Below are positions 1 to 64,000 of a stretch of 64,000 bases of DNA, piece by piece. Each line of letters starts with the position of its first letter. The stretch's first letter is position 1. The notes below the pieces were generated by a model. The model was not told the DNA's origin, did not search any database, and worked only from the letters and a program-made list of their open reading frames with translations. The position numbers were made by a program, and so were the translations under genes. Origin of the DNA: Psammoneis japonica (taxonomy: Eukaryota); the NCBI GenBank assembly GCA_008632985.1, contig QPGO01000112.1:62001-126000 (forward strand), in the 5' to 3' direction.

Positions 1-812
1 TTGACTTTGCCGAATTGGCTCCTCTGGTCGTCTGTGACCCTGTGCTCGATCTGAAGCCTTTCTTTGGCTTGGACGGTTGCCGCTGCGACAACACCTGCAC
101 CCTGCTGCCGCGTTCTGCTGTGGTGTTCAGCTCCCCCAACCCAGCAGAACTAGTTGCTCAGTGCTGAGCGCTCGAAGCACTAGATTGCTGCACCGCCCAG
201 TCCACCGTGCACGGCAAACAACGCGTTACCTTCATGGAGACGGACAGGAGCAAGCATTCCACGATTGGCCTGGCTGCCATGAGAGACGCTCGAATTTCTT
301 GCAAGCAGCCTGGCATGGCCGACCAACACACTCACCACCTCACCAGACTTCTTTCACGCATGGAGCACCTTGTCAATGAGTGCGTGGACCATGCCATCCT
401 CAAGGGTGTCGCTCGTGTCAAAAAGTTTCACAACTGGAAATCCCTGGCACGGTCAGATGGCATTTTCTCCTCTCTGGCGGCTGGGCGCAATGTCTTCCTC
501 AATGCCCATCGGGACCAGGACTTCTTCCTGTCAGTGGTCACCATGGTGGGAGTCCCTCCGTCCGGCAGCCACACCATGAATGATGGGATTGTGGCGTGCT
601 TCTGCTTCCCTGCCGAAGGCATCTCCGTTGCACTCCGGCTTGGTGATGTCATCATTTTTAACCCCACCAAGTGCCACCGCATCTCCAGCAGGACAAACTC
701 AAACGACGAGTTCTTCTGCGTGTCTCTCTACCTGAAGAGTGCTGCAGTGGGCAAGAGTGACAATTCAATCCCCCTTTCTCTAGAGGAAGAGACCATTCTC
801 AGGCGACTGTGA
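1..812 (+). pseudogene. TET/JBP-like 2OG-Fe(II) dioxygenase, 3' part, with in-frame TGA at 165-167
   Basis: GRNVFLNAHRDQD (HxD), FCFPAEGISVALRLGDVIIFNPTKCH (distal His) and VSLYLK resemble the double-stranded beta-helix motifs of TET/JBP-type oxygenases. The TGA corresponds to CGA in copy B. Confidence 0.65.
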
Positions 813-1034
813 CAGTGCAAAATAACTTGCTAAATTTGCGTAAATTTGCTGACTTTCTGTGCTCAGGCGACTGTGCAGGCACCTGCCAATTTGCTGGATT
901 TGCGCAAATTTGCCGACTTTCTGTTCTTCCTCGTTCCCATTTTTCGAACCACAACTGGGGCTACGCCTTTCCAACCAATGCTGCAGTTTCGCTGAAAAAC
1001 ACCAACACACTGTGCTGCTAATTTACAGAGCACA

Positions 1035-1673
1035 CTACACGGCAAACGTTTTGCCAGATGCAGAGCTTCTCCCCCCCGACTTGGGGAGTAGACGCGATTT
1101 CTTCTTCCGATTCATGGCACCCGACATCGCCTTCCTCTTCTTCTTCTTCTTCTCCGATTCGTCCAAGTTGCATCTGCAGAGAAATTCCTCCCCGGGCATG
1201 ATTCGCTTCGTGACTGCCAAGCACCCGTCATTGTAGAACTCGCAGTTGTTGTCTGCGTGTTGGCTTGCCTTGATCTTCTTCTTGTCCTTGAACGACTCGG
1301 TGGCATCGTTCACGCAGTGCATTCCGAGGCAGAGTGGATGGGAATTCTTGTTCCCTGGACTGCTAAAATCAAGCAGTTTTGGCTCCACTGTGACGTGGCA
1401 GCCCTCACTGTCATGGATGGTGGAGCAGCACACGCTGTGGTCTTCTCCAAACTTGCTGTCGTGGTCGCACCACGAGCAGCTCCTTGTCGCACCGGGCACC
1501 CTGGGGCCCACGTAGATTCCAACCATGCTGCCTTTCTGGAACTGGCGCAAAGCAAAAAAACCAATGCCTGCACCCCTCCGTTGCGACACGCGCAGCTCAC
1601 CCACCTCCACCTCCTTGGGGCCTGCGGAGCGAATGGACTTTTCGAGGCAAAACAACGCAGGTTGAAGTGACAC
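1035..1673 (-). pseudogene. SET-domain protein with basic C-terminal tail (mutated element ORF)
   Basis: GAGIGFFALRQFQKGSMVGIYVG, then MHCVND, NNCEF, AVTKRIMPGEEFLCRCN match SET motifs (GxGLFA..I.KG..IG.Y.G; NH; GEEL..Y) with Tyr replaced by Cys. KKKKKRK..RKKKSR is NLS-like. Confidence 0.75.
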
Positions 1674-1679
1674 GGCGCC

Positions 1680-2630
1680 TCATCCAAATGTGCACACTTC
1701 TGCACTTGCTCTCTTCATGAGGTGGACCAGTGTGAGCAACCACCCCGCTTCGAAAGCCTCAACGGCGGTCTTGAACACTTTGTTGCTCTTCGGCGTCGAG
1801 TCTGGGATGCCCCTCTTGCCGACTTCCGTGCGGCACCTCCACACCCACTTGCAGTGTTCGCCGTGAGCATTCGCGACGGCTTCAGGGTCGCTCCTGATGC
1901 ACCCCAGTTCTCCCAGCACGGGGAACCAGAGGTCGGGATCACTCGGCGCATCCTTCATCAGGCACATGGACTCCTGGAAATTATCGGATTTTTCGTGCCG
2001 CAACACCCAGTCCCACAAGTCGAATGACGGATCGTTGGGGTCCGGAAATTGCTTTCCTTCTTCTTCCTCTTCCGCCGTTGCTTTCGTGACCACTTTGGCC
2101 ACGGGCTTGGCTGCCTCCTCGCTTTTGCCGCTGCAAAAAGGCAGGACCTCCGGTTTCACAAAGGTGGCCTGATCACCCACCAACTCGATCTTGCAACCGG
2201 CCTCAAGGAGCTGCTCGGCGGTGCAACCCAGCTGCTGTGCTTCATTCCAACCACAAATTTGAAAGGTTGGCTCCGGCGGCACGGCTTTCTCCCTCTTTTC
2301 AGTTTGGGACTGCACCGGCTTCTCTGACATCCTTGCGCGTTCGGACTCGACGGACACACCCTCGGCACTTCCCTCGGCACCAAGTGCAGTCATGGCAGCT
2401 GCCGCCGCGCCTTCGGCGCCCGTGAGTTCTGCCATGACTTCCGGAGCTGCCACATCCTCTGCTTTGCCAGACGCAACGATGTTGTCCTCCGCCATTCTAG
2501 CGCCGTGATGACAGAGCTGCACTGACTGCTGTGTGGTGTGCTGCTTCATTCCAGCCGTTGGCGATCCACATCCTTCTGCGCACGTAAACGTATGACACTT
2601 CGCACCAAATTCCACGTAGCGCGTCTGCAC
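1680..2630 (-). pseudogene. Unknown element ORF, in frame with and upstream of the SET ORF
   Basis: 316-codon ORF conserved in copy B (60640-61620). Separated from the SET frame by a single TGA. Confidence 0.5.
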
Positions 2631-3065
2631 CTGTCTACGTCCGTCTTCACTACTGTACGCACTACGGTGCTGCAGCGCACCCTTTCAAACCTTCATTAAT
2701 GTTTATTTTTTCCTTCCTTTTCCTTTTCTCTTCTTCTTCTATCTGGCTGGGAGGAACTGCTGGATAGCCGGTGTATTGAAGCTTTCACTAAAGGAGGCTA
2801 CTGTAAGTTCCTTTTCTTTCTAGAGAGTCTAGAGGGCGTATCTCTTTTGCGTCGTCTGGAGAGGACAAACTGAACACCTCTAGCCTCTAGAGAGAGAATG
2901 CAAGTCGACTACGTAGGTGTCGCTCATGTCAAAAACTAAAAAAAAATAGATGTCGAAGAACTCACTTTTGATCTCCTCGTGACAAACTTAGCTTACAACA
3001 TGCTACCGTGATATGACATACTCAGTAGGAGTAACCAATTCCTTGTCACTACCAGCGAACGGTAC

Positions 3066-5544
3066 TTAAACGCCGCCCCTTCGCTCGATGTGAACAAGGT
3101 CCAAAACTTGGCGAAGATTGCCACTCGTAACGAGCCAGTCCCGAAAGCCTCTGTTCAACTCTTCTTCGAAACGAACTTGCTGTTCCTCTGTTAAATTCTT
3201 TTGGATCGCTTGTTGCAGGCTTCTCACTCGATCGGCCTTGTCCAAAGCTCGTCGCTCGTATTCCAATGGCAGATGAAACGGAGATAACTGCAGGATTTCC
3301 GCTAAATTGCGACAGTACTGGCTCTCCGTGACCCCTGTGGAAGATTCACCGTTTTGACGTTGCTCTTCAGTCTCCAATCGTCGCTGCTTCGCAGTGTCGG
3401 CCTCCAACGGGACTAGGAGTACTTGGAACTCAGAAGCAGGTAGCAGAACAGGAGTGTGCATAGTGTCATCATTTCCAGTACCAGACTTTGATCCTGTAAC
3501 CGCCTTATCATCTGCGCCAACTTGAGCTGCAGCTCCAGTAGCCCCGCCGGGAGATGTACCACCTGACGCAACCTGCGGAATCTCCAATTTGGAGAGTTCT
3601 ACCGGCTGCTTCCATTTATTGCTTGCACATTGCAACGGTGGGTAAGACGCGTCGTTTTCTTGGTTTCGATTCCCGTGGTAAGGAGACATGCTTTCTGGCA
3701 CAATAGCAGCAGCCAACCCTGTCGCCAACAAATCATCTCGAAGGCCATCATAATATGTGTTATACGGAGCAAATTGACAGTTGCGATTGTCGCCTACCAA
3801 CAAGGGTGGACTCGGTGTGAATATGCAATGAAGAACGTCAAAAGAATTGCTGACAAGCATTCGTCTCGAAGCGGATGTGACTGTCGTCTTTTCACAATTT
3901 ATAACATGAAGCAAGCCGGCTACAGCACCCACGACAATTGTACATCCGGTACAAGCGGCAATCGTCACGTGCTCAAAAGGCTGCAGCAAATACATGTGTG
4001 CATCAGAACAGTCGTATATCACCAAATCATGAAGACGACCACCACCAGATGAAGATACCCCAACATTTGACCCAGAAGAAGTAGATGCCCCCGACGACGG
4101 TCCATTGTCGGAGTAGTGAGAAGTCGGTTTGAGCAGTATGGTTGTTCCCCGCAAATGCGAGTAACTCAGTTCCTTTTGGTACGACTGTTGTGGTTGTGTT
4201 GCACGGCTCGTTTGCTCCTTTGCACCTGTTGATGTATCATCGCTGCTCTGGCGTGACTTTTTCTCTGAAAGTGACATAGAAGACAGTGCGGCAGTAGGGA
4301 CATCCTCCTCGCTGTGAGACGAGGATTGTGACCCCTCCGATTCCTGGTCGTGACCAGCCATAAGAAGTTCGAGTTCCAAGTGCCGCCGTATTTCTCGTTC
4401 GACTTCTGAAAGTGCAATTGAAGCTGTGGGGGGGACTTGTGACGAGTAGAGTACCGTCCATAGGAGGTCTCCAATCTTTAGTGGTGGGTCGTCGACGCCT
4501 CCGCCAGAAGGAGGTTGCAGCCAGAAATGAAATCTCTCAATGTCGTCCATCTTCAGTCTCACATCGGATCCTACATTGCCGTGTTCTTCATCGTGCTGTC
4601 GACGCAAGTCCTCTGCACTATGTTGGTTTGTTGCTCTTCTATTTGCGGAGGAGAGTGATGGAGGAGCAGGTGAAGGTATAGCCGCTAAATGCATGCAAGC
4701 ACGAACAGCCTCTGGATTGTGCGACACTGCTGACAGTAGCAAGAGTTTTCGCAAATGACGTAGTGCGTAGGCAATACAATGGGAGTTGTCGTTGTTCCAC
4801 CCTGCATGTATCCTAGTCCTGATTTTGTGAAAGAACAAAGGTGCACATGAGAGGGCACCAGGAAAACGAAAAAATAACTACAGGCGCGTTGCGACAGAAA
4901 CAAACATACCGTGGCGACAGAGCAGGATGCTTGAGGAGGCTTGTGAAATCCACTTTCCCTCTTGCGTTTTGAAGAACCGGTTCTGCAACACCAGAAGTTC
5001 CACCATAGAAACGGCGTTCGTCCTGACCACTTAAATTTCTTACATATGCCGATTCTTCACAATGCAGTAAAAGGAATGTGCCGATAAGCCACACGGGAAG
5101 TTCTTTCGCGGATGCTGAAGTTGAATATTTCTTCTTTTCGCCGCCGTGACCGGGCAGCGTTGTTGGAGTATTTCCGCTGCCTAGACTGCTCATACTTCCA
5201 CAACTTAGGATTGGAGGGATATGAGATTGATTTTCTTGATAATCTGCAGCATACGATTGTCCAGCCGAGTAAAGTGTATGATACATTGTAGCCATTTCCC
5301 AGAACAACGCTGCTGATGGTTCAGCCCATCCGAGCACACGCCATGCTTCTGTTATCCATAGAGTATATGGTATTACATTTTTTCGGTACGCTTGCTCCGA
5401 CAAGGCCGATGCAATAGCTAGACACAACGATGGCGTCAACTCACGGGCATGCTTCGGACTTAGTACGGCGCCTTCGAACGCATGGGGTTTGATGGATAGC
5501 CTCAGAACGGTATTTTCCGCAGTCGGAGTCCCTCCTGAGCTCAT
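3066..5544 (-). CDS. TBCCD1: TBCC domain-containing protein (TBCCD1-like), 2 exons
   Basis: C-CAP/TBCC beta-helix LVIYDCSDAHMYLLQPFEHVTIAACTGCTIVVGAV...FAPYNTYY and C-terminal FRDWLVTSGNLRQV. A GTATGT...ATCAG intron at 4909-4819 joins the two ORFs in frame. Confidence 0.85.
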
Positions 5545-50508: not shown

Positions 50509-52118
50509 GTTCCTTGCTTCTAAGTAGAACCCTCTCTTGATCGTCGTGGCGAGCTTTCGAAATGACCGCCAGATACCTCGATTAGACTATCATCAACTTC
50601 CCTTGCTTATAAGCAATGCATGCACCTGCACTGTCAGATGCGTTTGCGATTATTAACAACAGAAGAAGGAATGTTCACCTGTTGGCAGGTGCAAGTTGTT
50701 GGCACTTGGCAATTGGCCCGCCAAGCAAGAAAACAGGTGCAGTGTAGTCTGTCCTGCGTTCACCGAATTTGACAGGAAACCCCAGCACCATGCGGTAACA
50801 CGTGGTAGTTATTGTACAGGACGATTCCGCATGTACATTGTGTACCACAAGTGCAGTAGAAAAGCGCTGTACAGTATCTTGACCTTCTTGCTGACTGCAA
50901 CATTATCATCGACGATCAATTCGACTAATCTCAAAACCGCAGCTCACACCAGGACTAAAGTGAGGGGTTGAACAAGTTTGAAGCCCTCACCATCTGCAGC
51001 AACTCTGAGAATGAATTTACTTGAGGTTGGCATGCTCAAGAAAAAGGCAGGCACCACAACAGCCATGAACTTTTTTTGCAGTGCTGGTGACGAATGTCTC
51101 TCACAATGTCTCAATGCACAGCTGAGTTTCAGCCAAAAGTTCAAGCTGTTCAAGCAGGCCAGCCCCAAAAATGTGTTTGCAGCCTTGAAGAATGCCAAGA
51201 AAGGGGTGGGGGGGGGCAACAGTGTGCCTGAAGAACTGACAAAATGCACTGTGAACAAAAACTGAGACAGAAGATCAGCAGCGCCGAAAACGCGCCGGAG
51301 CACAGCCAGCTGTGGACTTTTTTTTTGACAACTGAGCTTCACGTTGTCAGTTGAGGCCACCAGAGATGTCTGATGCAGCCTCATAAAAACAATCAGCCCC
51401 TCTGCACAATTGCAAGCTGCCCAGCAATTGTGGCATGTTGTCAGCTGCAATTTTTTTGGAAAACAAACTTGGCAAGTCATCAAGCATGACAAAGGTTGGC
51501 ATCAAAATGCCAACAAGGAGTGCAGACATGACTGCTGAGACTGAGCCACACATTCAAGAAAAAAAGTGACAGCAAAAGAATTTTGGGTGTGTTCTTGGCC
51601 TGGTGAGATGCCAATGCTGCCCCAGCCATTTGCCGTTGTGTGCGCACTTCCCAAAGGCACACCTCAATGCTGGTGGCATGACAGAACATCGCAGGTTGCC
51701 ACAGGGCTTGCAATGGGGTGTGCCAAGATGATGTGTTGTGCGCCCCATGTGCTGCTTGATTGGGTGACAGCAGTTGCTGCACCTGGCAGGTGGGGCTTGG
51801 TGATGATTGTTGAAAGCAAAAACACCAAATTTGCAGCTTTTTTTCATCCAGGCTTTGTGAAAAGTTTGGTCTCTAAAATGAGTCAACAAGGACAGCAAAC
51901 AATGGCACCTGTCCAAGCATCTCACATTGGCTTTTTGACTTTTCTTGATGAACTGGGTTTTCACCAAATTGCCTGACTTGCCAATGGGTTGTCATGTGGT
52001 CATTTGAGCTAGAAGACGAGGCAGAGCTGCAAAATGGTCTCCTCATGTGTGCATCTGCTTTTGCATTTGCATCAACAGCAGGGTGCAAACTTTTCCAAAT
52101 TTACTCTGTGTGTTGGTG

Positions 52119-52266
52119 CTTGGGTTCTGCAACTTTTGCAACCCACAACCTTGGGCCCTGCGACTTTTGCAACAACCCGTGATCTTGGGTTCTGTGACTT
52201 TTGCAACCCACAATCTTCTTGGACCCAGTGACTTTTGCAGCTGTCCACAACCTTGGGTCCTGTGAT
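52119..52266. repeat. Degenerate minisatellite, ~4.5 units of 31-34 bp
   Basis: Units resemble CTTGGGTTCTG(C/T)(A/G)ACTTTTGCAACCCACAA. Confidence 0.85.
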
Positions 52267-52399
52267 GGTTCTGTGCAAGGCTGTTTTGCTCAACACTTGT
52301 GTGCACACTGCACCCAGAATTGCCTGTCTTGATCATCACACAAAGAGCAACAACAACTGGCACACTCCACCATGCAGAAGCCACAGTGTGCTGCGCCAT

Positions 52400-54200
52400 C
52401 ACAGAGACTGGAGGTGAGGAGCAGGTTGGTGAACAACATGCACAAGGAGGTTGATGATTGGATGAGCCATTTGCACACATGCTGTCCAGCAAGGAGGCAC
52501 CAAGTGTGGTCATGGCAGAGGCAGCCAAGCATCTGGGGGGCAACATCTCCCGCTTTGAATGGGGAGAGAGAGCAGTGGGTCACAGAAATGTTGGCTTGGA
52601 ATGCTGCAACTGCCAAACATGGGTTCAATGACAAATTCTTGATTGGCGCTGCTGCTGCTCAAGTGTTTCTCCATTGTGTTGAACAAAATGACAGAGTGCT
52701 GTTGTTGCTCTTCTTGTGCACAACTGCGGCACTGTTGGAAGGTGCACTGCAGTGTCTTGGACTCCTCAACTTGGCAAAACAGCAAGTGGGTGTTTGCTGT
52801 GTGGTGTCATTTCAACATGTTGATTTGAGCTCATTGGGAATTGCACACAAGGGCTGCAGTCTGGACTCAGTGTGGAGATGTGCCCATCCAGTTTGAGCAA
52901 CTGAGAAACAAATGACAGAGTGCCAAATGGGCAGCAAGACAGGCAACAAACAACCAGAAGCAAGTGGAGAGCTGACACTGGGTTTCCCAGGTGAAGCTCA
53001 AGTCCCAATCATGCACACAACAAAGAGAATGATGCTCTTTTGTGCCCCACTCTTGATGAGCACTGTGGTCACAGCCTTGTTGCACCTCTTTGGCATGATC
53101 CTCTTGATGAAGAAAAGCACAAGATTTCTTGTGACAAAAGCAAATGCTGCAGCCCAAAAAGAAAAAGCTGGTTTTGTCTGTCTGGAAGAAAAGGGGCAAT
53201 GGAGTGGCCTTTGATGCAGGATGTTCACAAGTCATCTGCACAGGGTTGGCTTGTGTTGATGTGCAACTCCACCAAGTGGCAGGTGGAAGACACAGAGAGG
53301 CTTGTTGGAAGATTGCAAAGCAGCGTGTGATTGAAACACAAACACATTGGATGGAGGGGCTCAGGACAGTGATGACAGGCACAAAGCAGCCCTGGGAGCA
53401 TGTCTTGTCAATGTGCAGAGATGGGTCACAAGGCTGCTGCTTTGACTGATGCAGCATCAAGACTGAAATGAGGAAATTGATTTGGGGCATTGGCCAGCAC
53501 TCTTGCCACAATGTTGACTGCTGCCAGGAACTGCTTGGCAAAAGTGCTCCTGTCCATGGCACACCTCAATTTGGGTGTCCAGACCTGCTGCTGAAAATGC
53601 ATGGAGAAATGCTCTGCCAGCAGACAGTGTTTTGTGTGGTGATGTGCAGACAGCCAGTCATGGAAGAAGGCAACATTGTGGCATCAGACTTGAGTGGTGT
53701 TCCTGAGATGTCTTTCGAAAGGAGTGGGCAGTGACGAGACATGCAAACAGTGGCTGAGCCAGAGCACAAAGATCCAGTTGCCAGTGCTGCCTTGCCACAA
53801 CACCTGCGCATTTAGCACGAGAGTGCAGACAAGCTTGCCTCAATTGCTGGATGCAAAATTGAGGGTTCTGAGTCACCCCAACATCAGGGCAAGCTTGCCA
53901 TTGATGTTGCTCTGTCAACCTGTTTGTTGTGCATTGCTGTGCTGGCACTGTTCTTGCAGCAAAAAGAGGGGAAAAGGTTGGCTGCTGTGAGCTGCAACAA
54001 TGAAGGAAATTTTGGGAAGAGCCTGTTGCTGCAAGTGCTTGCATCTGTTGTCTCCAGTTTTGTCAGATGACGCTTGCTCCTCCAAGCTCTCATTTTGGCC
54101 TGTCATTGCTGACAAACTGTGCAGCAGCCATGCAAATTGTTCATTCCCCAGCTGCACTCATCAAAGATGTCTGTGCTTGAATGATTCTTGCATGGCACTG
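52400..54200 (+). mobile_element. Possible non-LTR retrotransposon ORF2 relic (post-RT region and RNase H-like start)
   Basis: Fragments THWMEGLRTVM, GNIVASDLSG..MSFE (cf. RNase H IVASDGS..SFGW) and IADKLC (cf. N..AD.LA) appear in the expected order but are very degraded. Confidence 0.4.
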
Positions 54201-54999
54201 TTGTGGACTCTCTGGCTGGGTGTTCATTTGTTCGTTGCAGATCTCACCTTTCTTGTGTTTGCTTGGCCTCCGGCACCTTGCTCAGGGTTTCCAACCCCCT
54301 TCTAGTCTAACTGGACAGTGATGACTGCTGGTGCAAAACATCTAGAGCCACTGGTCTCTGTGCCCACCCCTCAAGCTCCTTGCACCGGGCCAACTCCTCT
54401 TCAGAGCTTCAGTGCCTCTCAAGGAGTCATGTTCAATGTTCAATGTTGGCACTTCTGCTCCCTCCAAGAAGCAGAGGAAAAAAAGAGCACCAGCACAGTG
54501 CTGTCATGCAGTTTGCAGATGACTCTTTGGCAACTGTTGTCTGTGACAAAAAGAAGCCTTCTTCATGTGTACAATCAAGCAGTCTGTGGTCAAGTCTTCA
54601 GCAACTCAAGTTGGGCCAGCCATCAGCACCTGGCTCAGCTCACACCACCACCCTTCTGATCCAACAGCAGTGCAAAACATGCAGCCACCAGCTCCTGCTG
54701 AGCATCTGGGGTTGGCAAGAACCCTTTTAGAATGTCTGCCAAGAAGTCACCAGATGTGCCAGCCATCTAAATTGCACACACAGAATGACCCCTCTGGATT
54801 GCATTGATGGAAAACAAACAGATCATCAAACACATTTGTGACCTTGCTCGCTGGATCAACAAAACACTTCATGCAAGTGTGACGAGTCCTTTCCATCACA
54901 ACCTTGCTGCTGTGCAGACCCTTGATCAGGTCCACAACCCAGTCATTGACTGCAGACAAAGTCAAACTTAAAGAGCTCTGTGTTGTGGCAGGTTCACTT

Positions 55000-56200
55000 C
55001 CCTTCAGAAGGTCTTGCTGCTTGCTGCAATGATGTCATGCTGGAACAACCATGACAACTTCAAAGTGTCACAGATGACACCTTTGTCATCTCACACCAAT
55101 CCAAATTGACCGCCTTTTTTCCAGTGTGTCAACAGGTGCCACAATTCACAACAAGGGGACCACACAAACCATGCTGGTCCATGCCACAGGTGGGACAACT
55201 TGCTGACAACAGCCCATGCAGATGGTTTGCACCTTCCTTGTCTGGGACAAACTCCAAATTGTTGCCTTGTGATCCCGTGATTGTTTCTTCATCATGCTTG
55301 TCACTGCACTCATCTTGATGGTCTTCCCTGCAACAACATCCCATGCCTTGTGTCCAGGTCTTGTGTCCTTCCATGCCACATTGTTTGACATCAGTCTCAA
55401 CTTGCCTGGATTGTCAAACATGGAGAGCATTGGTGCAGTGGAGGGCATGTGCTTGTGCCCTTCTTGACTCTGCATCACTTCAATTTTGCACACCTTTTTC
55501 ACAAGGTTGTGCCTCTCTGTCCACAGCTTGTGGGGCTCTTCCTCAAACTCACTTGCATGCCTTTTGTTCAATCTGCCAACAATGCTCCAGACAACTTTTC
55601 CTTTCCTTTCAAACTCAATCATCAACAAACCCATTCCAAGGAATTTTCTTCTCCAGGCTTGGCTGGCTGGGCAACAGAGGATGTGGTCATGGTGGTCTTC
55701 CATGGGACACTCACAATTCAAGAAATGGTGGGGCCTGACTCAGTTGCACCAACGAACCATCTTTTTGGCAGGAAGCAGTTTGTGGATGAGCTTGATGGTG
55801 GACATGTGTTGCTTGGAGCTCTGGGAAATTAGCACTGCATGAACCTTCCAATTGATCATGTGTGGGCAACTTTTTCAGTCCATTGACTTCATTCCTGGAT
55901 GTGTTCTAGAAGTGGAGGAGCCATGGCAGCATGTTGCACTGAAGGCTTGAGACCCAAAGTGATTGTGCTGTCACAGAAAGGGAAAGGCAACTTTGGCAAT
56001 TTGGAAATGGAAATGCATGAGCAGTGTTGTGTTCACATTGACCCTGATGCTGGCCTCTGTGAGTTTGTTGGTGCACACATTCACTCTGGTGTTGAGAGGC
56101 AATGACTCTGCTGGGGTGGAACGGAATCAGCGGCCCTTCACCCAGGTGTTTGAAGGTGATGAAACTGGAGGGTCATTGTCTGACAGTGACTCAATGTCTG
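55000..56200 (-). mobile_element. Non-LTR retrotransposon ORF2 C-terminal relic
   Basis: INWKVHAVL...TIKLIHKLLP...NCECPMEDHHDHILCCPASQAWRRKF...LWTERHN matches the C..C...E..DH...C zinc-binding tail of LINE ORF2. Confidence 0.6.
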
Positions 56201-56399
56201 CATGTGTTTGAAATGTCTGGTTCACCACATCTCAATCTGGCAACAGAGCATCTGCACCATGGCATTGGAGCCAACAGTCTTGTTCTTTGAATGCAGCAGT
56301 CATTGGATCCAACAATGGCAGGGTGGCAAATGAGTCAAGAAGCAGCACATGCACAAGCCCCTTGTTGTTGCAATGTGCTTCAACTCCTTGGCACTTTGT

Positions 56400-59300
56400 G
56401 ATGTGACAAAATTTCAGAAGGCAGAAAAGAAATCTTGATGCCAAAAAGACACCATGCATTTCTGCCCAGAGCACCACTCCACAGTGTCAACAACAGCTGT
56501 CATCAGCATTCCTTCCAACAATGTGCTGTCAGCCTGGCTGACTCATCTTTGTCTGGCCATTCTCTGTCAGTTTTCTGTTGCAAACCATTTGTCCCTTCAT
56601 GTGACTGTCTCGCTTCTCCATTTGGAACATCAGTGCAACCATGGCCTTGGTTGTCTCAGTTGGAGTCATGTCTTTGATCAATTGTGGTGCAAAACACACC
56701 CTGTTCTTGTGGAGTTGCTCAATCTCATTCTCTGAGGCGTTGTGCCTTCTCCGGCCAAATGCTTTTGGGTCTTCATGCAGCACCAGATGCTGCTGGGTGA
56801 GGGAAGTGCTCTTTCCTGATTGGAGTCAGTTGTCAATTTCACACATGAATCATGCTGATGCTGCTCCTGTTTCCATGTTGTGCTCAATGTCACCCCCTGG
56901 GGTTGGGGCTTGTGTTCATTCTCAAACAATGGCAGTGCTCAAGCTTGTTTTGTTCTTGCTCTGCTTTTGCATCTGCCACTCCTGACATCAAACTTTCTTT
57001 GCTCTGTGTTCATGTGTCTTCTCATTGTGGGATGCACCGCACTTTGTGCCACTCCTTGTCACTCTGCCTGGCATTTTTCTTAACTCTTCCACTGGTTTCT
57101 CTTTTCCACTTTTCTTGTCTGGGAACACTTCCTCTTTCTGATTTTTTGTCTGACACTCTGTGGTCTTCTTGTTCTCTTTGGCTTCTTCTTGGCTCTTGGG
57201 CTGTCAATTGAGGCTGGATCTTTTGCTGCTGGCATCTCATTTGCTTCACCATGTTGATCATTTGAGTCAGGTTTGTCTTCACAGTCTTTGTCTTCAGACT
57301 CAGCCACACAGCTGGCATTGTCTTGCTTGTTGTTGTTTTTGTCCATGCTTTCATCTTTGCTGTCACTTAAATTGTTGTCCACTCCTGTGGTCCAATCAGC
57401 ATTGCACACAGGCTGTCTCCATGTTTGCTCACAAATTTGAAGTCTTTGATGCCTTGCACCATTGCCATCTTCTTCTTGACCCCTTGCACACATGCATTGG
57501 TCAGGGGGATGGCATGGTGCACTTGCAGGGACTCAGTGGCTTGCTTGTGTGCAGGTTCACAAAGCAGTGGCTGCCCTTGGGAACATTGAAACGTGGTCAC
57601 AGACACATGTTGTCAATGCCATGTGTGTCCACCATGGTGTTTGTCAAGTTGATTTCAATGTGAGACAGGAGGACAAATGAACCAAAGGCAAAATTGAAGT
57701 GCTTGTTGCAGCCAAGGTTCCTTCATTGCATGATGGTGTGCAGACTGTGTGTGTTGAAAATTCCTTTCTTCTGTGGGCACATGTTCACCATCATGGTGTT
57801 CTTGAAAACATGGCATGCTTGCACATCAACTTGGGTGTCGCCTTGTGCAGCAGGTGATGTGCAGTGGCTGGAGATTGCTCCTTGATGGTCACAGTGGGTG
57901 CTCCACTCCACTTCAGGAACATGGTCACCAGTGTTTGCAGACACCAGTTCTGAGCTTGTGCCATCTGCGACTTCCTTCAGCATGTCTTTGAACTCAGAAC
58001 CACACTCAACAAAGTCAATCTTGAACAAAGCTGTGTTGCATTGCCATGTCCAGTGCATTGCACACACACTGACATGCTTCTTGGACCTCAGTCTTACACA
58101 CTCAATTGTCACATGTCATTGTCTTGTCAGTTGAGTGCAGCATTTAAACTCCTCTGCATGCTTCCATGATGTCAGTGCAGATGATCACACCTTCTTTTGG
58201 TTTCTTGCATGCATCTCAGGTGAAGTTGCTGCAATTTTGCTCCTCTCATGGGATTGTTGTGGGTGTTTGGCATTTTAACGCATTGATGAGTGTGTCCCCC
58301 AAATGGCCGCTGTCCTGTCCTCCATGTCTTCAGGTGCGATGGACAAGTTCTTCACCTGGTTTGATCACAAAAAAAGCTTTGAATCTCTCACACTGGGAAT
58401 TCCAGTCTGAGCACTTGCTTGGCATTTGCCACCTCCCTCTTGGCATGGCCTGTGGAGTTCTGCTCCACTGTCAGAACTGTGATTCTGCGCACACTCCTCC
58501 ACTTCTTGTTGCTGTCCTTTTTTCATTTTTTTCTTCTTTGATGGCATGCTTCTTGCGTGTGACTTGCTTTCTTAGAGAGATGTTTTGCATGGTCAAAGAA
58601 CTTCTGGCTTGATGTGAAGGTGTGCAGTCTGATGTCATTGACTTGGAACACTGCAACTTGCTTGCCAGTCTTCTTGTCCAACAGCTGGAACTTGTCCAGC
58701 ACCACTCGGTTGTCATGTGTGATGAAGCACTTGTTCTTCACACCCTTCAAACTGAGGATGTTTGCTGTTGCATTGTGCAATCCAAGCTTCACATCCCCCC
58801 ATTCAGGCATGGTGCAGTTTTCACCATCTGGGACATCCATTCCTGCATTCTTGAACCAGTTGTAAAATGCAGCGTTGTTTCAATGTTTGCAGTCTGGAGA
58901 GTTGTGCCCCAGTTCACTGCAACAGCGGCACACTGCAGCATTGCTCTGGTTTCTCTTCTGGACATGGCTCTGGTCCTTGGAATTCTTGGACCTCTTGCTC
59001 TCATTTTCAACATTGTTGTTCTTGTTGTTTGTGCACTCATTGTTCCCCATGCTGTGACTTTTGTGAGGGCAATTGTCTTTTGGATGATTCAGCAGCACAT
59101 CCATTGCCTTGTCAATGGTCTTTGGATGCATGTGCTTGCCCAGGCTGCAGTCTCGGATGAAGCTCTTTTTTAAGCTCTTGCAGCAGCAATTGTTGCTGTT
59201 CTCCATGAACAGAAATGTCATGCTGCATGTGTCAAAAAGCTGCATCCTTCAGCACTTGCTTTTCCATTGTGGCGCCATCCTTGCACACCTTGGCATTGGA

Positions 59301-60040
59301 AATGACTCCATCTGGCACTCTGTTCCCCTGTGACTTTCACTTGCAGCATCTTGCTGATTCTTGAATCTCAACAGGCAGCAATTTGGCAACTCATTCTTTT
59401 GTTGTTTCATGTCCAGCACACTCTGCAGGGACTTGACAAGTGTGTGAAACGGGTGTGGAGCTCTCATTGAGTGTCAAGTGCAAGAGACTGGATCAGCTTC
59501 AACAGCTTGATTGGGTTGTTTCTGACACACAAGCAACTGGGATCACCTTGCAGCCACTCTCTGCTTCATCAGCTTGGTGCAGTGATCATCTAAGATCTGG
59601 GTGAGTGTGGCAGTCTTGTTCTCTTTGAACTGCTTTGCTTTGTTGCCACACTGGCGTGGCTCCGCTTTGTGCTGGTGCTCCAGTTTTTCATCCTCTTGTT
59701 GCTTCTTTTCCAGCACAGTTTGGCAGTCTTATGCTGTCACAAGTGGTGTTGTCATCATTGGCATGCTTGAGGTTGGTTTCTCAGATCTAAAGTCCTTGTG
59801 TTTCACATTTTCTGGAGATCTCACCAAATGCACGCCTTGGGTGCACTCTTTCTGCATGTGGCAATGGATGATCTTCTCCTTGACATCTTTGCATGTTGCA
59901 CTGCAAGTGTTGCTGTTCAGTGATGAAGGATGGAACTTTGTCTCAGGCTGAAAGTGCTTCTCAATGTTGGTCTTCTTTGTTGGGTCAGAGGTTCTCAGGG
60001 CCTTGGTTGTCAGATCTGCCACTTCCTTGGCCACTCATTG
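56400..60040 (-). mobile_element. Ty1/copia (CoDi-like) LTR retrotransposon relic: gag, zinc knuckle, protease region, integrase, truncated RT
   Basis: In copia order on the minus strand: gag ATCKDVKEKII...FLFMENS...DCSLGKHMHPKTIDKAMDVLLNH; knuckle CRCCSELGHNSPDC (CX2CX4HX4C); ANILSL...ITHD; integrase SEFKDML...DHVPEVE; RT EIEQLH...KAMVALMFQMEKRDSHMKG. Confidence 0.9.
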
Positions 60041-60639
60041 TGCAGGTGCTCAGCAATGACTTGGCTGCAGGTGGAGTGGTGTTGCCAAGCACCAAACATG
60101 GTGCTTGTGACTCTTTGGAGTGAACATTGAACCAGCAAGTCAATGTTGCCAAAAGGGATCTCTTGATGCAAGCTTCAAACTTGTGGTGCAACAGGTGCCC
60201 AGTGGCACTGATCCAATGACATTGTGCAAACCAAATGGGCCAAATGATTCACTCCAAAGAGAGGGACAAGCAGAAAGGTGAAAAAGATCGGTGACGATGA
60301 GTTTTCAATTGCAAAAAGAAGAGTCGCCAAATCTTTCCCATGTCAGGAGCAACAGCATCTTCGCTCTCTTCAACAAATCTGGGTTCCTAAAATTTCCCAG
60401 CATCTTCCAGATGTTCCAACAGAGATCGGAACACTTTCATCTTCTGCACAGTGTTGGCTTGACTTTGATGAGGGGCAAGGGCAGTCTTGCAGAGCTGCGT
60501 GTGTCGCAGTCGTGAGATGAATGACACACCGGCTGTCCAGCAGTTCCTCCCAGCCAGACAGAAGAAGAAGAGAAAAGGAAAAGGAAGGAAAAAACAAACA
60601 TTGATGAAGGTTTGAAAGGGTGCGCTGCAGCACCGTAGT

Positions 60640-62250
60640 GTGCACAGCAGTGAAGACGGACGTAGACAGGTGCAGACACGCTGCATGGAATTTGGTGCGA
60701 AGTGTCACACGTTTACGTGCGCAGAAGGATGTGGATCGCCAACGGCTGGAACAAAGCAGCACACCACACAGCAGTCAGTGCAGCTCTGTCATCACGGCGC
60801 TAGAATGGCGGAGGACAACATCGTTGTGTCTGGCAAAGCAGAGGATGCAGCAGCTCTGGAAGTCATGGCAGAACTCACGGGCACCGAAGGTGCGGTGGCA
60901 GCTGCCATGACTGCACTTGGCACCGAGGGAAGTGCCGAGGGTGTGTCCGTTGAGTCCGAACGCGCAAGGATGTCGGAGAAGCCGGCGCAGTCCCAAACTG
61001 AAAAGAGGGAGAAAGCCGTGCTGCCGGAGCCAACCTTTCAAATTTGTGGTTGGAATGAAGCACAGCAGCTGGGTTGCACCGCCGAGCAGCTCCTTGAGGC
61101 CAGTTGCAAGATCGAGTTGGTGGGTGATCAGGCCACCTTTGTGAAACCGGAGGTCCTGCCTTTTTGCAGCGGCAAAAGTGAGGAGGCAGCCAAGCCCGCG
61201 GCCAAAGTGGTCGCGAAAGCAACGGCGGAAGAGGAAGAAGAAGGAAAGCAATTTCCGGACCCCAACGATCCGTCATTCGACTTGTGGGACTGGGTGTTGC
61301 GGCACGAAAAATCCAATAATTTCCAGGAGTCCATGTGCCTGATGAAGGATGCACTGAATGATCCCGACCTCTGGTTCCCCGCGCTGGGAGAACTGGGGTG
61401 CATCAGGAGCGACCCTGAAGCCATCGCGAATGCTCACGGCGAACACTGCAAGTGGGTGTGGAGGCACCGCACGGAAGTCGGCGAGAGGGGCATCCCAGAC
61501 TCAACGCCGAAGAGCAACAAAGTGTTCAAGACCGCCGTCGAGGCTTTCGAAGCGGGGTGGTCACTCGCACTGGTCTGCCTCGTGAAGAGAGCAAGTGCAG
61601 AAGTGTGCACATTTGGATGAGGCGCCGTGTCACTTCAACCTGCATTGTTTTGCCTCGAAAAGTCCATTCGCTCTGCAGGCTCCAAGGAGGTGGAGGTGGG
61701 CGAGCTGCGCGCATCGCAACGGAGGGGCGCAGGCATTGGTTTTTTTGATTTGCGCCAGTTCCAGAAAGGCAGCACGGTTGGAATCTACGTGGGCCCCAGG
61801 GTGCCCGGTACGACGAGGAGCTGCTCGTGGTGCGACCACGACAGCAAGTTTGGAGAAGACCACAGCGTGTGCTGCTCCACCATCCGTGACAGCGAGGGCT
61901 GCTGCGTCACAGTGGAGCCAAAACCGCTTGATTTTAGCGGTCCAGGGAACAAGAATTCCCATCCACTCTACCTCGGAATGCACTGCGTGAACGATGCCAC
62001 CAAGTCGTTCAAGGACAAGAAGAAGATCAAGGCAAGCCAACACACGGACAACAACTGCGAGTTCTACAACGACGGGTGCTTGGCAGTCACGAAGCGAATC
62101 ATGCCCAGGGAGGAATTTCTCTGCAGATGCAACTTGGACGAATCGGAGAAGAAGAAGAAGAAGAGGAAGGTGACGTCGGGTGCCATGAATCGGAAGAAGA
62201 AATCGCGTCTGCTCCCCAAGTCGGGGGGGAGAAGCTCTGCATCTGGCTGA
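60640..62250 (+). pseudogene. Unknown-domain ORF plus SET-domain ORF, same frame, interrupted by TGA at 61618-61620
   Basis: Homologous to 1035-2630. GAGIGFF...KGSTVGIYVG, HPLYLGMHCVND and REEFLCRCN are present. Confidence 0.7.
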
Positions 62251-62487
62251 ACGTTTGCCGTGTAGTGTGCTCTGTAAATTAGCAGCACAGTGTGTTGGTG
62301 TTTTTCAGCAAAACTGTGGCATTGGTTGGAAAGGCGTAGCCCCAGTTGTGGTTCGAAAAATGGGAACGAGGAAGAACAGAAAGTCGGCAAATTTGCGCAA
62401 ATCTGGCAAATTGGCAGGTGCCTGCACAGTCGCCTGAGTGCAGAAAGTCAGCAAATTTATGCAAATTTAGCAAGTTATTTTGCACTG

Positions 62488-63933
62488 TCACAGTCGCCTG
62501 AGAATGGTCTCTTCCTCTAGAGAAAGGGGGATTGAATTGTTGCTCTTGCCCACTGCAGCACTCTTCAGGCAGAGAGACACGCAGAAGAACTCGTCATTTG
62601 AGTTTGTCCTGCTGGAGATGCAGTGGCACTTGGTGGGGTTAAAAATGATGACATCACCAAGCCGGAGTGCAACGGAGATGCCTTCGGCAGGGAAGCAGAA
62701 GTGCGCCACAATCCCGTCATTCATGGTGTGGCTGCCGGACGGAGGGACTCCCACCACAGTGACCACTGACAGGAAGAAGTCCTGGTCCCGATGGGCGTTG
62801 AGGAAGACATTGCGCCCAGCCGCCAGAGAGGAGAAAATGCCATCTGACCGCACCAGGGATTTCCAGTTGTGAAACTTTTTGACACGAGCAATGCCCTTGA
62901 GGATGGCATGGTCCACGCACTCATTGACAAGGTGCTCCATGCGTGAAAGAAGTCTGGTGAGGTGGTGAGTGTGTTGGTCGGCTGTGCCAGGCTGCTTGCA
63001 AGAAATTCGAGCGTCTCTCGTGGCAGCCAGGCCAATCATGGAATGCTTGCTCCTGTCCGTCTCCATGAAGGTAACGTGTTGTTTGCCGCGCACGGTGGAC
63101 TGGGCGGTGCAGCATTCTAGTGCTTCGAGCGCTCGGCACTGAGCAACTGGTTCTGCTGGGTTGGGGGAGCTGAACACCACAGCAGAATGCGGCAGCAGGG
63201 TGCAGGTGTTGTCGCAGCGGCAACCGTCCAAGCCAAAGAAAGGCTTCAGATTGAGCACAGGGTCACAGACGACCAGAGGAGCCAATTCGGCAAAGTCAAT
63301 GTCAGCAAGACAAGGTGGTGCAGGCTGAGTGTAGTCGCCGTTGTGAACCAGAGTGCGGTTGGCTACGCAGCGCATGGAGAGACTCTCAGTGGCGCACGGT
63401 GCGAGTGGAACAAGGCGAGCAATCTTGGATGTTTTTGCACTGGCACGGCTGCGGATTCGCCTGCGGCTGCGGTGGGCCTTGCGAAGTGGCGGTTGAGCCC
63501 TCAACACATTCTCGCATGTCCTGGTGCGCATTGACGATGCGGTGTTCGCAGAGAACGTGTGTGCAAACTTGCCGGCAAATGTTCCGCTGCTTGACACTGT
63601 CACTGTCATCTCAACAGTGCCCAAAGCAGAACTCTTTCAACAGGGACCGGCGGACTCTAGGGGAGTGGGGTCAAAACCTGATCGAGAGATGTGTCTGCTT
63701 TCCGTTGCCTCAAGAGCACCCAAAGCAAAACTCTGTTGACAGGGACCGGCAGACTCCAGGGGAGTGGGGTCGAGACCCAATCGCAAGAAGCATTTGCTTG
63801 TTGTCGGGCTGCGAGCTGCATGTCCCAAACCCCCACACTGTTGAGACCGGCTGTAACTCGATCGCGACAAGTGCTTGTCGTTGGTGGGACGACGCAGCGA
63901 GGCACGAGGCAGTTGCAACATGGTGTGTCTCAA
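62488..63933 (-). pseudogene. TET/JBP-like 2OG-Fe(II) dioxygenase with N-terminal extension, one in-frame TGA at 63637-63639
   Basis: ORFs 62488-63624 and 63637-63933 share a frame. NAHRDQD...GDVIIFNPTKCHCIS gives the HxD...H triad. Confidence 0.65.
63620..63800. repeat. Two imperfect ~99-bp tandem units encoding a 33-aa repeat on the minus strand
   Basis: CCCAAAGCA.AACTCT.T..ACAGGGACCGGC.GACTC.AGGGGAGTGGGGTC occurs at about 63620 and 63719. The peptide G(L/F)DPTPLESAGPC occurs twice. Confidence 0.85.
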
Positions 63934-64000
63934 TTTGAAATGTGTTTCAAAATGTGATGACGGAAGTGTTGTCGCGTTGTTTTTGTCTCCGCGGAGGGAG

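Follow-up and report, generated by a model that had tools for sequence, protein, structure and literature searches.

A many-copy repeat of the diatom Psammoneis japonica with a TET/JBP-fold dioxygenase gene and a candidate SET-domain gene

Can a transposon of a diatom carry both a DNA-base modifier and a protein methyltransferase, and thereby act on its own chromatin state? This question is raised by a stretch of 64,000 nucleotides from Psammoneis japonica (GenBank assembly GCA_008632985.1, contig QPGO01000112.1, positions 62,001 to 126,000 of the forward strand; hereafter the window), at both ends of which lies a repeat containing two convergent open reading frames (ORFs), one resembling TET/JBP dioxygenases and the other resembling SET domains. 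On balance, and with some reserve, we favor the view that this repeat is a many-copy DNA transposon, that the dioxygenase and the SET-like gene are its anti-silencing cargo, and that the copies in the window are relics.

The two copies were delimited by a BLAST comparison of positions 60001-64000 with the window, in which 60526-63299 is the reverse match of 2774-1 (96.035% identity over 2774 bases, gapless). They differ at 110 positions, and 107 of these differences are transitions. Copy A (1..2774), inverted with respect to copy B, is truncated at the window start, and copy B (60526..64000), which covers at least the terminal 3475 bases of the element, runs off the window end. The boundary is sharp: its terminal 30-mer is found at exactly two places in the window, against an expectation of 0, and the sequences outside the shared end are unrelated between the copies. 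Between the copies, approximately 47 kb is taken up by ordinary genes of a eukaryote (TBCC, ATG2, Sec7 exchange factor, SF3b1, UBR-type ligase, and ABC1 kinase; 3-50 kb), followed by a 9.5-kb block of heavily decayed repeat (51-60.5 kb). Because these housekeeping genes lie between them, copies A and B are separate insertions, and the idea that they are the arms of one giant element was ruled out.

The abundance of the repeat was assessed in X1, a public DNA run in which 45% of the words sampled from the stretch are present and whose contigs were aligned to positions 59500-64000. In total, 909 contig pieces were placed there, of which 230, 311, 260, and 108 showed a likeness of at least 99%, 95-99%, 90-95%, and below 90%, respectively. 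The unique flank (59500-60553) is covered by four contigs with zero differences at a depth of 70-79, whereas the summed depth over 60557-64000 is approximately 1350-5500 in every bin, to the last base, or 17-70 times that of the flank. This step in depth coincides with the element end visible in the window. Up to base 64000 the summed depth is still 2140-5540, which indicates that the repeat extends past this position. Summed contig depth is not equal to copy number, and the value is the one expected from tens of diverged copies. Copies A and B represent two insertions of the same dispersed, many-copy repeat. Many dispersed copies (with the copy number taken from summed contig depth), a common sharp end, and unrelated flanks are the general marks of a transposable element; the first-pass annotation of this DNA, made from the sequence alone, had proposed a mobile family with a defined terminus, and the depth data bear it out.

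The first of the two genes is an ORF of 378 amino acids on the minus strand of copy B (62488..63624; first ATG at 63609). Its HRD motif (62785-62793) corresponds to residues 278-280, and its distal His, within the motif at 62611-62631, is residue 334. An open frame of 378 codons was reached by the longest frame in 0.3% of 300 dinucleotide-preserving shuffles of copy B, so that its length is beyond chance, and homology backs the ORF as well. A HMMER search of 1.84 billion representatives returned 724 cluster representatives at E ≤ 0.001, 406 of them at E ≤ 1e-10; the best relative is 42% identical (E 2.8e-63), with residues 13-376 aligned. When the ORF is aligned with 70 of these relatives, H278, D282, D324, and H334 are invariant (70/70), and D280 and K354 are found in 69/70. 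The HxD...H iron triad formed by H278, D280, and H334 is thus present in the window copy.

An AlphaFold model built with the family alignment had a predicted local distance difference test score (pLDDT) of 91.1 and a predicted template modeling score (pTM) of 0.90, whereas a model from the single sequence was unusable (pLDDT 33). In a Foldseek search of the PDB, the top rows were all CcTet (E 1e-9), TET2, CMD1, and NgTET1, with E values from 1e-9 to 1e-6, and the remaining 2-oxoglutarate (2OG) oxygenases began about a thousand-fold weaker. Similarly, the top 16 entries by VIA-align were all TET2, NgTET1, CMD1, or CcTet (Z 13.2-18.6), followed by AlkB/FTO proteins (10.8-11.1). The best Z scores were 18.6 for human TET2 (273 residues aligned; root-mean-square deviation 4.4), 14.7 for Chlamydomonas CMD1, 14.6 for Naegleria NgTET1, and 14.3 for Coprinopsis CcTet, against approximately 11 for FTO and ALKBH3; the four enzymes, which share the HxD...H arrangement, therefore stand 2 to 8 units above the AlkB-type proteins. 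A search independent of Foldseek, over 48,161 representative chains, placed TET2, CMD1, NgTET1, and CcTet at ranks 1-4 and ALKBH1 fifth (10.8). By its modeled fold and its iron triad, the predicted enzyme is of the TET/JBP type, as first suspected from its HxD...H motif. A grouping with 2OG oxygenases that do not act on nucleic acids, which would have spoken against this assignment, was not seen: the nearest folds are TET/JBP, then AlkB-type.

At the level of sequence, several results weigh against this assignment. The ORF had no Pfam match at E ≤ 1, and none of the 71 family members reached the cut-off of the Tet_JBP model (PF12851); at E ≤ 10, Tet_JBP matched 9/71 members (best E 0.003) and Cupin_2 matched 16. 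The TET/JBP resemblance first proposed was borne out by fold, with four TET/JBP enzymes on top in Foldseek, and was not borne out by Pfam. A word-indexed protein search with the ORF gave no relatives, a PDB sequence search gave no match, and the family profile matched no meaningful PDB chain by sequence. Identity to TET2, NgTET1, CcTet, and CMD1 is 9-13%. In TET/JBP dioxygenases, an Arg after the distal His binds 2OG. Such a conserved Arg is not evident in the 70 relatives, with none at +15; R339 (+5) is present in 56/70 and K354 (+20) in 69/70, and the ORF has Lys354 where an Arg would be expected. The clade is large, comes mostly from marine samples, and lies beyond the reach of the Pfam Tet_JBP model. 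Immediately upstream of the ORF, a 99-bp tandem repeat is present in 1.8 copies (63620..63799; 80% matches, score 248), and near 63835-63957 some X1 contigs have replaced segments.

The second gene is less clear. Facing the dioxygenase is a SET/PR-like ORF of 207 amino acids on the plus strand (61627..62250), which has no ATG of its own. The stops of the two ORFs are 237 bases apart in copy B, which places the genes tail to tail, and the pair recurs in copy A at 207-812 (plus) and 1035-1673 (minus), so that the convergent arrangement initially reported for each copy is correct. SET domains have a GxG near the start, an NHxC-type motif, and a C-terminal ELxxxY. In the SET-like ORF, RRGAGIGFF (61720-61746) and GEEFL/REEFL (REEFLCRCN in copy B, 62107-62133) align to the PR/SET domain, and the middle motif is degenerate (LGMHCVND, 61972-61995). 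Cys occupies the Tyr positions expected in the C-terminal motif. The counterpart in copy A, of 212 amino acids (1035..1673, minus strand), matched the Pfam SET profile (PF00856) over positions 1-102 of 105 at E = 0.014, with 16.2 bits against a cut-off of 22.4. Its only PDB sequence match at E ≤ 10, and hence the best, was the PR/SET domain of MECOM (E = 1, non-significant), in an alignment that is collinear at both ends, from the GxG start to the PGEE(F/L)L end. In addition, for the copy B ORF, 21 of the 30 nearest Atlas clusters among language-model neighbors carry SET or PR/SET (score 0.95). From these similarities, the second ORF quite probably encodes a SET/PR domain. It had first been described as a SET-like ORF with a tail resembling a nuclear localization signal; the tail is present (KKKKKRK, 62149-62169, and RKKKSR, 62191-62208, plus strand), and the SET resemblance turned out weaker, the Pfam match being sub-threshold and limited to copy A.

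Upstream of the SET-like ORF and in frame with it lies an ORF of 326 amino acids (60640..61620, plus strand). The two are separated by one TGA (61618-61620) that is common to both copies; the equivalent of the upstream ORF in copy A, identified by inspection of the reading frame, has 316 amino acids (1680..2630, minus strand). No recognizable family or feature was found in the upstream ORF by Pfam and word-indexed searches, and its length of 326 codons was reached in 2.3% of the shuffles.

What state are these copies in? The dioxygenase of copy B carries R146H, Y194H, Y308H, and Y352C at columns that are 90-97% conserved in the family. Copy A keeps R146 and Y352 and has Y308C, R179H, and a stop at an Arg of copy B; its dioxygenase remnant (207..812, plus strand) belongs to a frame, 3-812, that corresponds to residues ~109-378 and is interrupted by that one stop. 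At the codon at 62570, X1 contigs read Tyr, and the Cys is private to copy B. Moreover, 91 of the 110 differences between the copies affect the 410 bases inferred to have been CpG ancestrally, 22% of which have diverged, and the 19 others are spread over 2364 bases (0.8%); such a contrast is the usual trace of prolonged CpG methylation. Of these 19, 13 are TA versus TG/CA, and six other changes remain. Divergence since the copies split has thus affected almost only CpG and TpA dinucleotides. Both copies are relics, with conserved residues lost, an in-frame stop in each, and CpG decay.

The observed/expected ratio (o/e) of CpG is 0.77 in copy B and 0.78 in copy A, compared with 0.12 in the neighboring old repeat and 0.97-1.02 in host genes. 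Evidently, both copies were CpG-methylated for most of their stay. The higher ratio of the copies relative to the old repeat may simply reflect age. Given the heavy CpG decay, the cargo did not protect these two copies from methylation, which is a point against an anti-silencing role.

In active copies of the element, by analogy with known systems, the dioxygenase would oxidize 5-methylcytosine (5mC) on the DNA of the element itself, and the SET-like enzyme, whose basic tail would direct it into the nucleus, would methylate a histone lysine. Together, the two enzymes could delay silencing by host CpG methylation, as proposed for the fungal transposons that carry TET; copies would decay once silenced, as those in the window have, and the transposition gene would be located beyond the window. 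We infer this anti-silencing role from precedents of several kinds. In fungi, TET/JBP genes ride 11 lineages of DNA transposons, namely Kyakuja, Dileera, Zisupton, Plavaka, EnSpm, hAT, Harbinger, IS3EU, ESTA, Helitron1, and Helitron2, according to the accessible part of a recent article (PMC12730594). The present element resembles them in being a many-copy element with TET/JBP-fold cargo for which a counter to methylation silencing is proposed, and it differs in its diatom host, in a dioxygenase outside Pfam Tet_JBP, and in the adjoining SET-like gene (PMC12730594). The same portion of that article contains no mention of diatoms or stramenopiles. In Phytophthora, SET genes travel on HarbingerS and MuDR elements (cited in PMC12730594); like our element, these are stramenopile elements with a gene for a SET-type histone methyltransferase, the SET call being sub-threshold in our case; a TET partner is present here and is not reported there, as far as the accessible text goes (PMC12730594).

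Two further comparisons are more distant. VANC is an unrelated, sequence-specific protein and not a base-oxidizing enzyme. As encoded by the VANDAL (MuDR) elements of Arabidopsis, it undoes the epigenetic silencing of its own element (cited in PMC12730594), which is the role proposed here. The dinoflagellate proteins CryTJ1 and AmpTJ1 are, like the window enzyme, divergent TET/JBP homologs of marine protists with an HRD iron motif, and their product is enriched in repeats; unlike it, they are host enzymes acting on T, and the likeness is drawn from their description only (PMC11572971, accessible part).

Transposon-borne TET and transposon-borne SET are therefore each known separately. Our literature search, which covered articles without their supplements, found no report of TET and SET on one element, of a TET-carrying transposon in diatoms or other stramenopiles, of a SET-carrying transposon in a diatom-like host, or of a Pfam-missed TET clade in the role of transposon cargo. 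If intact copies exist, they would represent a natural two-enzyme kit for DNA and histone marks, as well as a handle on the silencing of repeats by DNA methylation in an ecologically dominant group of algae. The dioxygenase clade comprises hundreds of 50%-identity clusters that Pfam misses and would widen the range of TET/JBP enzymes in marine protists.

A different view of the two genes is that they are passengers, that is, captured host TET/JBP and SET genes with no part in the life of the element. We regard this as unlikely, although it accounts for part of what is seen at the loci of the relatives. A pattern scan of metagenome contigs, based on a four-sequence alignment, yielded 30 loci with dioxygenase relatives. 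Gene order is conserved in two groups of them (L006-L010, and L017, L018, L021, L022, and L024), where the neighbors are 82-100% identical at the protein level and include histone, cyclin, ankyrin, and RING genes, a pattern expected either of host genes or of repeated sampling of one element. None of the 30 loci showed a TET-SET pairing: neither the SET-like nor the upstream ORF had a tblastn match there, and Pfam scans of 109 ORFs from these loci (39 + 70, TET-like included) gave no SET domain. So far, among these loci, the TET-SET pair is particular to the window element. Both the conserved order and the missing pairing count against cargo with a function. Helitrons often capture host genes, which also speaks for passengers.

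Other observations argue the opposite way. The captured ORF is full length relative to its family, residues 13-376 being alignable. The X1 contigs keep the conserved Tyr at 62570, so this residue has not been lost family-wide. Furthermore, that 11 transposon lineages of fungi captured TET independently, time and again, suggests that the element gains from carrying it (PMC12730594, accessible part). The closest locus, L001 (40% identity), has its dioxygenase relative 700 bases behind a protein with DUF6570, Helitron_like_N, and PIF1 domains on the same strand. It is the only relative with an above-cut-off transposon gene, a Helitron RepHel, as its neighbor, a situation that recalls the fungal TET-carrying Helitrons (PMC12730594). 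At L013, a DDE_Tnp_4 ORF lies 2.5 kb from the relative. Models of the Kyakuja-Dileera-Zisupton (KDZ) transposons had no match among the 109 ORFs, and a scan of viral contigs gave no dioxygenase relative. The clade includes members linked to transposons and others that are apparently resident.

Some of these loci have features of their own. In L001:1694-10084, RepHel is directly upstream of the relative, which has 626 amino acids and is followed by tandem-repeat DNA. Five marine contigs, L006-L010 (e.g., L006:4258-19471), share a block of same-strand ORFs in the order of a first ORF of 1282-1415 amino acids, a TET-like ORF of 440 amino acids, and ORFs of 499-502, 380, and 1351 amino acids; the first is shortened to 874 amino acids in L008 and almost missing from L007. 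The ORFs of this block, which may be a host locus or a large element, have no Pfam family, and the two largest in L006 have no PDB relative. In L027:1105-4719, the TET-like domain is C-terminal (residues ~940-1180) in an ORF of 1205 amino acids, with approximately 900 uncharacterized residues ahead of it.

A narrower objection concerns the SET-like ORF only, which might not be a gene and might simply be a frame that was opened when hypermutated DNA lost its TAA and TAG stops. The near absence of these two stops makes length weak evidence here and leads to abundant long spurious ORFs with many Cys, His, and Gln residues. Accordingly, a longest open frame of at least 207 codons was reached in 57% of the 300 shuffles of copy B, and copy B itself has five open frames of at least 200 codons, one of which (63315-63938, plus strand) lies opposite the 5' part of the dioxygenase gene and the region upstream of it. 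In addition to lacking its own ATG, the copy B ORF has no Pfam match at E ≤ 1 and matched the PDB by sequence only as chitinase-like noise. Word-indexed searches, including one with the TGA read through as X, gave no relatives of the SET-like or upstream ORF. Together with the shortfall of copy A against the Pfam gathering score, these results weigh against a SET gene; by its length the ORF is not beyond chance, and it is a weak similarity that points to a coding function. However, three separate weak signals agree, namely the full Pfam SET profile, the Atlas neighbors, and the ordered PR/SET motifs at both ends, and Cys in place of the usual Tyr of the C-terminal SET motif fits decay of TA to TG. 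We therefore think it improbable that the SET-like ORF is not a gene, and retain a SET/PR domain as the better explanation.

The decay itself raises a further question. In all repeat blocks of the window (1-2774, ~22.5-24.5 kb, and 51-64 kb), TpA is depleted along with CpG, and TpG/CpA are enriched. The o/e of TpA is 0.58-0.60 in host genes, 0.22 in copy A, 0.15 in copy B, and 0.04 in 51000-60525. The direction of the change is a loss of TA, since all four of the four columns with a family consensus Tyr are now His or Cys in the window, Y308 having become His in copy B and Cys in copy A; the dioxygenase ORF has only one Tyr in 378 residues, compared with a family value of 3.1%. The loss of TpA since the split of the copies amounts to at least 20% per site, about equal to that of CpG. 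Eight of the 11 TpA losses in copy B are within the 200 bases that abut the old repeat (60526-60720 versus 2580-2774), whereas copy A, which there abuts a host gene, retains those eight steps. This suggests that the mutational process spreads from neighboring repeat chromatin. A sequencing artefact was rejected as the source of the CpG/TpA pattern, given that four X1 contigs match the depleted flank (59500-60553) exactly, X1 being possibly the assembly's own data. Our literature search found no paper describing TpA decay of repeats, and we know of no mechanism for it. With a loss of TpA as fast as that of CpG, this separate mutational process deserves its own study.

It could be asked whether the enzyme is a thymine hydroxylase of the JBP or dinoflagellate TJ1 type, with 5-hydroxymethyluracil (5hmU) at the TpA steps of repeats underlying their decay. 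Base J occurs at TpA steps, on both strands, in the telomere repeats of trypanosomes, and 5-formyluracil (5fU) mispairs with G. The TpA decay is real, repeat-specific, and about as fast as CpG decay. In dinoflagellates, TET/JBP homologs make 5hmU that is enriched in repeats and tied to transposon silencing, and the HRD of the window is the form of the iron motif named for CryTJ1, as given in the accessible part of that report (PMC11572971). Against this, all four solved structural neighbors act on 5mC; the most TpA-depleted sequences are older repeats of the window without sign of a dioxygenase gene; and TpA is normal at the loci of the relatives (o/e 0.45-0.77), which means that the gene family alone does not bring TpA decay. 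A thymine-oxidizing TET/JBP enzyme is a chemically reasonable cause of such decay, and nothing here links the window enzyme to it, so that we consider thymine hydroxylation by this enzyme rather doubtful. The T-to-C signature reported in the first-pass annotation is thus real, and its suggested link to the oxygenase did not find support. A broader version, in which the enzymes of the clade would be 5-methylpyrimidine dioxygenases acting in repeat chromatin on both palindromic steps, 5mCpG and TpA, with 5-hydroxymethylcytosine and 5-formylcytosine (5hmC/5fC) and 5hmU/5fU as products that drive a twin decay of CG and TA to TG/CA, would make of this diatom process an oxidative counterpart of fungal repeat-induced point mutation (RIP); we put it forward as a long shot. 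5mC oxidation remains our preferred putative activity for the dioxygenase.

Finally, that there is no mobile element at all, and only a local inverted segmental duplication, is hardly credible: the window does show just two copies, inverted and 57.7 kb apart, but the 909 X1 contig pieces at 85-100% likeness, the summed depth of 17-70 times the unique flank, the sharp end, and the unrelated flanks contradict a one-off event, which had been named from the start as the outcome that would overturn the mobile-element proposal.

If the repeat is mobile, to which class does it belong? The label of transposon comes from copy number and the sharp end, from which we infer a DNA transposon. The element end (60526..60561, minus strand) contains, approximately 7-8 bases in from the terminus, an imperfect 9-bp hairpin (arms 60553-60561 and 60533-60541) with a pyrimidine tract before it. 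At their 3' end, Helitrons have CTRR and, about 10 bases from it, a hairpin; they insert before a T and lack inverted terminal repeats. On the dioxygenase strand, the end is a 3' end consisting of the pyrimidine tract, the hairpin, and CCGGTGT followed by G (copy B) or A (copy A), and a T comes right after the last shared base in both copies. The hairpin and the following T recall a Helitron 3' end, but the terminus is GTGTR and not CTRR, and the hairpin folds no better than shuffles (z -0.80). Read on the opposite strand, the end is (C/T)ACACCGG, and a cut-and-paste element with CA ends would fit this equally. The window shows a single end and contains neither a transposase nor a target-site duplication, which, like the terminus and the fold, tells against the transposon label; the RepHel of L001 has no match in the window either. 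An affiliation with KDZ or Plavaka, the carriers named in the first-pass annotation, whose marks are a transposase of their own and inverted terminal repeats with a target-site duplication, finds no support in the window. Our best single guess is a Helitron-type element, at somewhat less than even odds, the chance of some other DNA transposon being about even. An apparent compensatory change in the hairpin (60535 and 60559) was not counted, as both changes are TA losses within the cluster of eight.

The old repeat block next to copy B has peculiarities of its own. Its ORFs (51-60.5 kb) belong to no Pfam family, and an unconfirmed CCHC-like string is located at 58880-59245. Between 56000 and 60000, the AT skew is -0.25 to -0.29, and the o/e of CpA (2.1-2.4) exceeds that of TpG (1.6-1.8), so that decay is not strand-symmetric in this block.

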